A stretch of 58,370 nt of DNA, counting the filler, from Dugesia japonica (Eukaryota), in NCBI GenBank assembly GCA_001938525.1. It is 5 parts of 5 records of this genome, joined end to end, with 100 filler letters (N's around TTAATTAATTAA, not from the genome) between each part and the next. Parts side by side here need not be neighbours in the genome. Positions count along the whole stretch, not along the records: positions 1 to 16,997 come from MQRL01603996.1; 4 more parts are not named here. One strand, written 5' to 3'. The position numbers and the translations under genes are program-made. Of the stretch, positions 1,986-6,090 are shown in pieces. Each line of letters begins with the position of its first letter. The first letter of the stretch is position 1. The notes under the pieces are model-generated. The model saw nothing but the letters and a program-made list of their open reading frames with translations. It did no database searches and was not told where the DNA came from.

Positions 1986-2805
1986 TTAGTATCACTCTAC
2001 CACCTGGCATTGCCATTGGCGCACAGCTTCTGGTATCCTTGTCTTTTATATCTTCGCTATCAGATATTAAGCTAAAATTGGTATCTTCGGGTGGCGCCGT
2101 TCCAATAATTTCGGTATCCGTTATTCCCCAAGATTTCTTTTTAGCCTCATGCTCTGCCCGAACTCGGCGTTTGAGTTCTTTGAAGTCGTGCTGTCTGCGG
2201 ATTCGCTGTAATTCATCATTCGGATAGTAGATTAATTCTCGATTTCCTGCTTAACTTGATTTCTATAGCTGCTTCCACGCTTTACTATTCCTCCGTACTC
2301 ACCTATTTCCGGATCTGTACTGTCGTTCCTCTTCACTCCGATATCCGTTTAATTTCTCTCCTTTTCTAGATTGTCTTTCGTCGTCACTTTGATATTTACT
2401 AGATTGTTTGTTTTTCTCACACCTTTGTACTCCCAATTGTAGGTAACCATAGCAGCCGACTTCACTTCTGCCTTCCTGCTCATAGATATTATCCTTTGCA
2501 ATATTCTCATCTGACCGATGGTTCTGATAATTCACTTGGAATACTTTCTGATGCTTTCCATACCCGTTACTCAGTACCACTCTTCGTCTTTGTCGTTTGC
2601 CATAAGAATCATCATTACTGTCATCACTACTACTATCTTGTCGTTTCCATGGTTTAAATACATCAAAATAGGATGTCTTCCTTGCTTTTCGCTTTCTCAT
2701 GTCATCACATATTGCACAAATTTGTTCAACTATCTGCCTATCGCTTCCACTCACTTGAATCAGATATCGCAATAACTTCCTTGTATTATGAAAATCATTT
2801 GAATG

Positions 2806-4718
2806 ACTATTTAGTACTACTGATTTAGCCCACGCTGTGAACAATCCCATGATCATTGTCCATGAAATTTTCCTTTCCTTTTTGTATAAATCGAAACACG
2901 CTAATAATTGAGTCAGTAATACTTAGTAATTATTTGCACTATAAAGATTATTCTCAATAATCCTGCCATTGCTTGTCCGAAAACGATAAATCTACCCCAC
3001 ATCTTCTTCATTACATTTACTGTTGCTTGTTGAAAGTGATCTGGTGATAATAACAATTCATAATTAGGTCTCCCCTCTGACTTAAATGCTCCTCCAGCGA
3101 CATACACAATGTTAGATAAAATTTGCATTCGTTTGACCGGAAATAACATGTGCTCTCTGGCCTTCTCCAGATCCTCCAATTTGTAGATACTACCTTCTGG
3201 TACATTTAATGGGTTAAAAGTCCGTTCCATCTTCAATTTTAATGCTGAGAAATTTCTAACAAAGGTATCTGCAGGTAATCTCTCCAGAAAACGGATCCAT
3301 TTATTGTTAGTCATTTTAAAGTAGGGTCCAAATAAATTAGAACAGTTCAGTTTGTTTGGCACGAATTCTTTGGGTGATATTCCTCTTGTAATAGGTTGTA
3401 CATACCGTTTTTCTCCCATATAATCGATTTCCATCTCATTATAGCAAGTTTTCTCTCAGGATAAAATTGCTTCCACCCTCCTACATCGATATATGAACAT
3501 ATCTTTGCCAACAATACGCCCGAATTGACCTTCTTCCAATGGTAACACTGGGGTTACATTGTCGGGTTTTTTGTTATCGCTGTTGCTAATTTTGTCCGTA
3601 ATATTTAGTGATTTAACAAACAGTCATTATAGATCAAATCATGATACATTCGCTCCGTAGATTGTTGTGCTAGGTGGAACAGAGTCTCCACTTTATTATT
3701 CAGAAATAAATATAACTTAGTATCTTGAGGCATAACCCCATCTCTCGCCTTTTCCAGTCTCCGCTTTGATACAAAGATTCTATTATAATTCGTATTATAT
3801 GCAATTTCTACACATTTGGCCTCGGATTTATTACGAATTAATCTAATCATATCATTTGCATCGGTTGTCATTAATACGATTGGTGTATCAGACCACAATA
3901 GCGCTTCCTCCTTTGTTTTCATTTCCGCGTTTACTTTTCCGACGGCTGGCATTCTCTCCTCTTTAACTGAGTCAACAATTTTCTTTCCTCGATACTCATC
4001 GAACAAAACCTCTCTTAGAAATGGCATTGTACATTCCTGATTATTGACTTGATATACTAAGGTTGATTCTCTCGTATTGCAGGAATTATCTGAGGCCAAA
4101 CACATTGAATACACCTTCATTCTTTTGGTCGTTGTATTAAATAAGGCATCGAATTCCTTTAGTTCTGCTCTATAACTTTCTATGGCCACAACTCCAGTCG
4201 CATAGCCTAAAGGGCTAGTGTATTTTCCTTGTACACAAGTTCCTGTTGCATCCGAAATTNNNNNNNNNNNNNNNNNNNNNNNNNNNNNNNNNNNNNNNNN
4301 NNNNNNNNNACTATTTGACCTCCTTTGGCATTAATTATCTTTCCTTCGCCTACTGGTATTTTACCGGTTGTAAATCCAGATTCACACTGTTGTCTTATGA
4401 GAAAAACGGGTATTACTTCCATTCCTAGGGATATGACTGCCGAAAAACTACTTCCTCCACACCAATATACAAATATTTGCATTGTTACTTTACATTTTCT
4501 CACCTTTGTCTTGTAATAATCTGATTCTTGGTTCACAAAATAACTCATAGACTTCCATGAAATTTTTTTTTTTCTGGGTTTGCTACGGGGCATTCTTCTG
4601 CATCGATTAATGAATACACCATTTCCCCGATATCCAAATGATCACAATCATAAGCTCGGATTGCTGTACTTCGGCGCATTAAGAACATTAATATTAACAC
4701 CATGAACTTGGACTGCAT
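2806..4718 (-). pseudogene. env: Chuvirus-like (class III fusion, gB-related) envelope glycoprotein, ~630 aa when reconstructed
   Basis: Signal peptide MQSKFMVLILMFLMRRSTA then AYDC..YSLIDAEEC; CKVTMQIFVYWCGGSSFSAV; CESGFTTG; GTCVQGKY; CLASDNSC; LFLNNK..MYHDLIYNDC; GKDMFIYRC..CYNEM..YVQPITR; GSIYKLEDLEKAREHMLFP; TM segment WGRFIVFGQAMAGLLRIIFIVQII. Order and Cys spacing match chuviral G as I recall it. Interrupted by stops, A-run frameshifts and an N gap. Confidence 0.8.
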
Positions 4719-6090
4719 ACTGCTAGCTCTTGTGCTTGGATTCGCTTCGTTTCCGTATTCGTCGATATAATCTTTTAATAATGCATGGACCCGTTCGTTT
4801 AATTTTCGACTTGAATTCGTTTTTGGTTTCATCTTTTCGAATATTCCATTCCATCCTTCGATATTTACTAATATCGGTTCGATTTGATCATTTGTTATCC
4901 CGACTATCGGTAGATTTCTCAATTGAAATTTCATTCCTGGCCTACAACGAGCCACTGCTATTTGCGTTTGCTTTACCAAATATGCAAATGCTATTAGTAA
5001 TTTTGGAATTTTCGGGCAATTCGATAGTACCCCTTGTACTTCTTTTTCCATTGTTTCTCGATCCTTGAGGAGTGTATGTTTGGCCACTGGTAATTTTGCT
5101 ATGATTGGTTCAAATATCGTTGCTAATTGTTTGCTATCCGTTGACAAAATTTTATTTCCGATCCATAACTTTACATCTGGATACAGCACTAGCAATACTT
5201 GGTGTACTCGTTTCTCGGTTGATAACGTGTGTGGTTCTAATTTCTCCATTATTTCCGTTGATAATTCGGTCATTTGTTCATCTCTTGTTGGTTTTCGCAT
5301 CGTTGTACCACTGGCTGTCGCTCCTTTTTGTCGACCTCTTTGTTTTTTATCCATCCATGTTTCTGCGTCTCGCATCACTCGTTGATGGGTTTTATTATCC
5401 GTCGTATCATCCATGTTATCCGTTGTCGTTTTCACTTCTCCAAACATTGTGGCTGGTGTTATTATTTCTTCCGCTATTTCATCCAATCTAACCGATATAT
5501 CATCGTCCTCCTGATCCAAATCCACTTGTTTTGGATTAAATCTTCCCGAGTTCTTTGGTTTCATTGGTATTTCCGACTCTGACCTTGTTGCTGGTTCCAT
5601 TTGGGTTATTTGAATCTCTTCATTGTCCACCTCATCTTCAAGATCTAAAATCTATTCGACTATCTCATCTTCTGTGGTGTTTTCTGTTGTTGACTCCTTG
5701 ATTGGCGATTTTCTCGGTCGTCCTCTTGATTTTGCAACTACTTCACTCGTGTTACCCGACGTTATTGGTTGTACAAATGATTTTATCGATGTCTGATTTG
5801 ATCCTAGTCCCGATTGCAATTTATTTTTAATCTCCTTGGCTGGTAATTTTCGTCTGATCAATCGTTTACTACCTTCCGGTTTGATATACATTTTATTTTC
5901 TACCTTTTGTCGGATATCCAGCGTTCCGATGATATCGTTATTCAATAATTCCCGATTAGTAGTACATATGTCGGCTCGAATGGTATTTTAGATTTCATCT
6001 GTTCTACTGTCTCGTACGCCAAATTCGAGATTCTCGTTTCATGACCATCTGGTTCTACGATTCTGAAGTTAAATCTAAGTGGTAATACTT
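4719..6090 (-). pseudogene. Polyprotein accessory segment: possible ubiquitin-like domain, AT-hook, acidic linker and unknown helical domain, in frame with the glycoprotein signal peptide
   Basis: ORFs 5652-5945 and 4545-5630 share a frame separated by one TAG; SRGRPRK AT-hook at 5710-5730. Confidence 0.6.

Follow-up and report, generated by a model that had tools for sequence, protein, structure and literature searches.

The window analysed here, a stretch of 58,370 nucleotides from Dugesia japonica (GenBank assembly GCA_001938525.1) composed of five joined parts, contains in its first part (MQRL01603996.1) a decayed copy of a Ty3/gypsy retroelement whose genes lie on the minus strand in the order gag, spacer, gB-type env and pol. 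With env in the middle of the coding region, the glycoprotein is bracketed by a short hydrophobic stretch at its start and a predicted transmembrane anchor at its end. From these sequences and that of a single related protein, we consider it probable that an active element would make one polyprotein from which signal peptidase releases Env, leaving Pol in the cytosol, and this is the likeliest of the mechanisms that we weighed. Gag and approximately 1,700 spacer codons would be made in the cytosol before an internal signal at 4706–4677 started translocation into the endoplasmic reticulum (ER), where signal peptidase would free the N-terminus of Env. A single anchor at 2987–2931 would then stop transfer and return the chain to the cytosol. 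Gag and the spacer would remain cytosolic, possibly held by the cleaved signal, and the protease, reverse transcriptase (RT), RNase H and integrase would begin as a cytosolic tail of Env, from which the aspartic protease encoded by the element would release them.

Gene order and state of the element

The element lies in a purine-skewed block of 35–39% GC that extends from position 1 to approximately 16,000; the rest of the window is animal-type DNA of 20–28% GC with assembly gaps. A Pfam scan of 15 stop-to-stop fragments from the minus strand gave the order gag, long spacer, env, a tail fragment matching no family, RT, RNase H and integrase (Table 1), with gag approximately 2,050 codons upstream of the start of env; a decayed aspartic protease, matched when its internal stop was read as X, lies between the tail and RT. 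Two features by which Ty3/gypsy elements are recognised were found, namely the pol order protease-RT-RNase H-integrase and, upstream, a gag capsid domain with CCHC knuckles (PF03732 and PF00098). The zinc-knuckle piece is in the frame of the capsid piece, from which one stop separates it. The window accounts for 3,600 or more codons of coding span, to which approximately 300 missing ones can be added.

Four of the 15 fragments match PF24664, two of them above the curated cut-off, and together they cover profile positions 7–52, 49–128, 149–341 and 366–565, arranged in profile order between the hydrophobic stretch and the anchor, with an assembly gap of N inside env at 4260–4309. These ordered pieces therefore point to a class III glycoprotein of full length that separates gag from pol, and by its profile matches env is a gB-like class III (Monjiviricetes-type) fusion glycoprotein. 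No relative of solved structure was found for it by phmmer.

Stops or frame changes interrupt every gene of the window copy, RT and integrase included, and this copy is dead. It falls outside the rule for intact open reading frames (ORFs) given in PMC13524379, since RT has lost a large segment and numerous stops and frame changes are present. In run X9, 2,437 contigs match the element, spread over 30 of 30 bins: 183 are at least 99% identical to the window copy, 584 are 95–99% identical, 1,203 are 90–95% identical and 467 fall lower. As these contigs are mostly 90–95% identical, the element is one diverged copy of a multi-copy family. Among the 40 X9 differences listed (there are 697 others), at least three fall in stop codons of the window copy, one of them in env, and listed insertions or deletions lie beside two of its frame changes; differences inside its stops indicate that some of the breaks are private to the window copy.

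The element runs off position 1, and a check for paired long terminal repeats (LTRs) found no long repeat of 1–17000 elsewhere in the window. Upstream of gag, a region of approximately 5–6 kb (11000–16900) keeps the strand skew of the element and contains tandem repeats of 92, 39 and approximately 73 bases. No ORF of over approximately 100 codons was found in 11000–17000, and the region upstream of gag may be a long LTR or leader.

Predicted membrane segments at the two ends of Env

A preliminary description of this DNA had noted a hydrophobic FMVLILMFLM inside an open frame, ahead of STA/IRAYDC, and had read it as the internal signal of a polyprotein. The motif and its setting are as described: it occupies 4706–4677 on the minus strand, codons 316–325 of the stop-to-stop frame 5651–4548, with Met 4718 (codon 312) ahead of it and RR followed by STA/IRAYDC behind it (4676–4644). 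Among 3,280 windows of ten residues drawn from 18 coding fragments (3,442 residues), it is the most hydrophobic. An equally hydrophobic stretch appeared anywhere in 18.9% of 5,000 shuffles of these residues and in a given 15-start slot in 0.04%; the weight of FMVLILMFLM rests on its position, because the viral profile PF24664 begins on it, profile position 7 corresponding to codon 316. Signal peptidase prefers small residues at -3 and -1, which the STA before IRAYDC provides, and we infer a signal-peptidase cut after STA. The 311 codons before Met 4718 contain no stop, a run with a chance of approximately 1e-11 at the base composition of the element; the two alternative frames have 28 and 19 stops.

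An internal signal and a separate start are indistinguishable by sequence here, because the core is short and the segment that begins at Met 4718 is as long as N-terminal signals usually are. In retroelements Env normally has a message to itself, which in Drosophila errantiviruses is typically produced by splicing. Env or Env-Pol could likewise be translated from its own message, spliced or started internally, that begins at Met 4718, with the long polyprotein serving for Gag and Pol only; the preliminary description had also raised a subgenomic env-pol message from this Met. The 19 residues from Met 4718 to STA include a basic residue and a core of 10 residues and have small residues at positions -3 and -1, the usual shape of an N-terminal signal, and this Met stands near the start of the viral profile. 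It may, however, be merely the old start of a captured viral gene, and a pyrimidine-rich tract is lacking at all 13 AG sites in 4900–4701 (no more than 10 of 19). Nor did the splice junction envisaged near Met 4718 appear: raw reads of four runs contain no joints and no piles of starts or ends there, which at a depth below 1 is a weak result (253 of 13.6 million records in X12, on both strands and none at 99% identity or above; 9 in X11; 16 in X15). None of the listed runs containing the element is recorded as RNA. We consider a separate message unlikely; it is compatible with signal-peptidase release from the polyprotein.

At the other end of Env, the transmembrane and amphipathic segments previously placed at approximately 2810–2995 were located as the anchor at 2987–2931 and an amphipathic helix at 2919–2884, to which a third hydrophobic segment at 2868–2812 can be added. 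The anchor, approximately 570 codons after the signal, is the best 19-residue hydropathy window of the element; in the window copy a frame change at approximately 2925 separates it from the next helix.

A protein search with the C-terminal env piece yielded one relative among 308 candidates, a 1,023-residue metagenome protein (P0001) that is 66% identical to that piece. P0001 carries PF24664 (residues 13–120), the anchor, a 450-residue linker, protease (540–632) and RT (854–1012) in one frame, and env is therefore continuous with RT in this protein. It is 49% identical to the window over the two segments after the anchor, and its linker is unalignable past the first 50 residues. Only residues 86–104 of P0001 resemble a transmembrane helix (Kyte-Doolittle hydropathy, KD, 2.12; membrane-insertion sum of 2.2 on the Hessa scale, where the two segments that follow score 8.2 and 8.7), which makes a single membrane pass after the ectodomain likely. 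Alternatively, the segments after the anchor might also cross the membrane, or the stretch upstream of Env might be an uncleaved anchor, leaving Env held at both ends and freed only by the element protease or never. The hydropathy of the third segment in the window copy (KD 1.37) would favour such a topology, but in P0001 this segment is weak (KD 0.99, sum 8.7), the 10-residue core at the Env start is too short for a stable anchor, and if the chain crossed the membrane an even number of times after the ectodomain, RT and integrase would end up in the lumen, where retrotransposition should not be possible. We regard this topology as very improbable.

Beyond these segments, a charged, low-complexity tail had been said to continue towards the protease. 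Its charge is evident (38% D/E/K/R), its complexity is only mildly low (3.9 bits vs 4.14–4.16 for env and RT), and in the window copy it is not continuous: the frame changes at approximately 2925 and again near 1985, and between these points stops occur at 2301, 2265 and 2253. Most retroelements keep Pol scarce, and the linker could contain a genuine stop, or a site of recoding, at which Env ends, with Pol made only by occasional read-through or frameshift. The three stops fall within 17 codons (2301–2253), the second frame change lies just ahead of the protease, and, with the linker unalignable over most of its length, the families of P0001 and the window element could differ here. However, P0001 is continuous across the anchor-protease junction, no slippery heptamer of the form X XXY YYZ occurs in 2650–1360, similar breaks are found inside RT, integrase and env of the window copy, and the planarian element Burro is a single ORF (PMC6431247). 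Termination in the linker thus appears distinctly unlikely. No 2A-like NPGP motif was found in any minus frame.

Several observations weigh against signal-peptidase release of Env from one polyprotein. The hydrophobic core of 10 residues is short for an internal signal approximately 2,050 codons from the start, and no 19-residue window at the signal resembles a membrane anchor (sum 5.9). At the other end, the third segment of the window copy ties with the anchor (3.5 each), and the flanking charges pick no side, the P0001 anchor having 5 K/R in the 15 residues before it and 6 in the 25 after. P0001 is a single-member cluster that starts inside env and is hence silent on the signal. The stretch from anchor to protease contains three stops and two frame changes in the window copy, and the 40 X9 differences listed (there are 697 others) include none at these three stops. 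Finally, the ectodomain pieces show no enrichment of N-glycosylation sequons.

Collectively, the polyprotein with signal, anchor and cytosolic Pol set out in the preliminary description holds for the env-pol fusion, which P0001 displays, and for the upstream frame, with its 311 codons, and a single pass fits P0001. We infer the cleavage of the signal, along with translocation itself, the second cleavage and a continuous frame in the element's own family. Searches for longer proteins found none, whether the query was P0001 1–170 (0 of 34) or the middle piece of env (0 of 1,002), both being insensitive to long polyproteins. Locus scans with the env piece found nothing in metagenome contigs (0 of 47 candidates) or viral contigs, and the 80 loci derived from P0001 match the RT fragment only, with 0 of 80 matching the env, spacer or gag fragments.

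If Env is released in this way, the short internal signal might act as a switch, admitting only some chains to the ER and setting the Env-to-Gag ratio without splicing or frameshifting. It might also act as a tether, with the cleaved signal anchoring Gag and the spacer, the Env anchor holding Pol on the same membrane, assembly proceeding in a flavivirus-like manner, and the protease being activated by clustering of Env trimers. We offer this extension as doubtful.

Spacer, pol and other features of the window

The coordinates and supporting matches of the features are collected in Table 1.

Table 1. Features of the element, in minus-strand order, by position in the window
Feature	Position	Strand	Evidence or remarks
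gag capsid region	9948..10874	-	PF03732 Retrotrans_gag, E 3.5e-07
gag, two CCHC zinc knuckles	9606..9944	-	PF00098, 2 stretches, E 6.3e-09
Long coding spacer, five pieces	5655..9513	-	No Pfam family at cut-off
Stop-free codons in env frame (n=311)	4719..5651	-	No Pfam family at cut-off
Predicted internal signal	4662..4718	-	Met 4718, MQSK, core 4706-4677, RR, STA; PF24664 match begins here
Predicted class III (gB/Monjiviricetes-type) env ectodomain, in pieces	2988..4661	-	PF24664, best E 4e-28
Predicted transmembrane anchor	2931..2987	-	KD 1.96 over 19 residues; matches P0001 86-104
Amphipathic helix, basic cluster, third moderately hydrophobic segment	2812..2919	-	49% identity to P0001 108-158; hydropathy, moments
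Charged linker towards protease	1984..2811	-	Stops at 2301, 2265, 2253 in window copy
Aspartic protease with a single stop inside it; DTG near 1945	1712..1981	-	PF13975, E 1.1e-06, X read at stop
RT (C-terminal part only) and RNase H	879..1727	-	PF00078, PF17917, PF17919
Integrase, off window end	1..494	-	PF17921, PF00665

Within the spacer, 9513–7946 (minus strand) holds a duplicated unit of approximately 200 residues, the copies being 34–37% identical by internal BLASTP (E 1e-16 to 1e-19), and the second half of the unit may be ubiquitin-like. For the spacer as a whole, three weak leads hint at ubiquitin-like folds: a Pfam match to RA_2 (E 0.009), similarity to ESM clusters of PF15044, PF11976 and PF00240 (0.81–0.86), and a predicted model (pLDDT 51) that retrieved mostly ubiquitin-like entries at Z 3.5–4, its top entries being unrelated. 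A further candidate beta-grasp domain (RA or ubiquitin-like), weakly supported, was noted at 6879–6538 (minus strand), whose model had no Foldseek match at E 0.001.

Ahead of env in the same frame, the ESM look-alikes of 5294–4719 (minus strand) are unnamed viral proteins of Nucleocytoviricota and Preplasmiviricota (score 0.95). These look-alikes, from large DNA viruses, have 137–144 of 256 ESM features in common with it, a lead only, and the domain is possibly a captured viral one. By eye, 5300–4800 had also suggested a Bcl-2-like domain as in Burro, in which case the signal would double as a Bcl-2 tail anchor; this idea was dropped as unsupported, the region having no Pfam match, no solved relative and a predicted model of pLDDT 42 with mixed helix and strand.

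In pol, the Pfam fragment for RT and RNase H spans 1808–879, followed by a linker and then by the integrase matches at 494–66. Protease and RT are separated by 12 codons in the window copy vs 311 in P0001, such that approximately 300 codons are missing. At approximately 1740–1705, where the end of the protease lies 12 codons from mid-RT, X12 reads continue into sequence missing from the window copy. Two more decayed Gypsy-type RT fragments were identified by tblastn with P0001 at 42093–42560 and 50084–51086 (minus strand; E 3e-18 and 2e-16 for the main pieces).

Elsewhere in the window, degenerate tandem arrays of 31-base and 21-base units occupy 55570–56520 and 56940–57300. At 46650–47580, next to N gaps, segments of 196 and 54 bases are duplicated exactly, which is probably an assembly artefact, and the four 100-base gap markers at 16998–17097, 28708–28807, 37208–37307 and 47537–47636 (N runs around the TTAATTAATTAA linker) are artefacts.

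Comparison with known elements and polyproteins

The closest layout in the literature is that of Burro/GYPSM1, a planarian element with a single ORF of 4,873–5,140 amino acids in which env lies in frame between gag and pol, described as the first such case (Arkhipova and Yushenova 2019, PMC6431247). Its internal region reaches 25 kb and its total length exceeds 30 kb, and its env has matches to mononegavirus fusion proteins (PMC6431247). Burro/GYPSM1 and the window element have in common Retrotrans_gag with CCHC, a long spacer, env before protease, then RT, RNase H and integrase, as well as a similar coding span. Burro also has a Ubi2/SUMO-like motif (PF11976, PMC6431247), and the ubiquitin-like leads in the window spacer point the same way, weakly. 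In contrast, none of the BIR, MATH, ankyrin, BCL2 and dUTPase families of Burro has a match in the 15 fragments of the window. We have filed the element as Burro-like in layout, and not as Burro, because the BIR, MATH, ankyrin and BCL2 domains went undetected. In the text available, the account of Burro in PMC6431247 is silent on signal or topology.

Errantiviruses with the order GAG-ENV-POL and an HSV/gB-type envelope (HSV, herpes simplex virus) have been described from Platyhelminthes, Nematoda and Bryozoa, and the flatworm entries include six from Schmidtea, one from Macrostomum and two from Prostheceraeus (Chary and Hayashi, eLife 2026, PMC13524379). They share gene order and env class with the window element, and they do not form one clade (PMC13524379). 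Their ectodomain is flanked by a signal peptide and a transmembrane domain, an arrangement with which the hydropathy of the window env would be compatible. By eye, in an unscored comparison among the entries listed, the start of the window env is nearer to the six Schmidtea entries than to the nematode or bryozoan rows in cysteine spacing and short motifs. Together with the AT-rich background of the window (Schmidtea exceeds 70% A/T, PMC11410931), this resemblance suggests a planarian-type host. The main text of PMC13524379 contains neither 'polyprotein' nor 'fused' and is silent on frame sharing between env and pol; an internal signal in these elements may already be depicted in its Fig. 5A, on topology classes. 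No published account of how Env is released was found in a search conducted mostly outside subscription journals and the figures of PMC13524379.

Endogenous retroviruses of nematodes, studied by Sacco and colleagues, are said to carry a continuous gag-env-pro-pol ORF. The flipped env-pol order in these viruses is credited by PMC13524379 to Sacco et al. 2022; their elements are of the metavirus type with env before pol, like the window element, and their hosts are nematodes.

A precedent for an Env cut from a retroelement polyprotein is Atlas virus (Belpaoviridae), in which the envelope proteins lie within a single polyprotein of 2,828 residues and the predicted transmembrane helices and cleavage sites are placed as in phleboviruses (PMC9094657). 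Unlike in the window element, Env comes last in Atlas virus (Gag-Pol-Env) and is of class II, and nothing returns to the cytosol after it.

The gag-env-pol layout has been in print since 2019. A polyprotein of the form Gag-spacer-Env-Pol has to pass through the ER membrane two times within the chain, and the usual control of ratios is impossible for it. The window copy and P0001 together mark both of the junctions relevant to release; being dead, the window copy is a poor model, and the published intact planarian elements are better ones. The polyproteins of flaviviruses, hepaciviruses and alphaviruses have an internal signal, a signal-peptidase cut, and enzymes downstream on the cytosolic side. 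The window element would be alike in these respects if Env is released as we propose, the proteins being unrelated and the comparison one of analogy only. The hepacivirus case of this analogy is the core-E1 junction of hepatitis C virus (PMC5402940).

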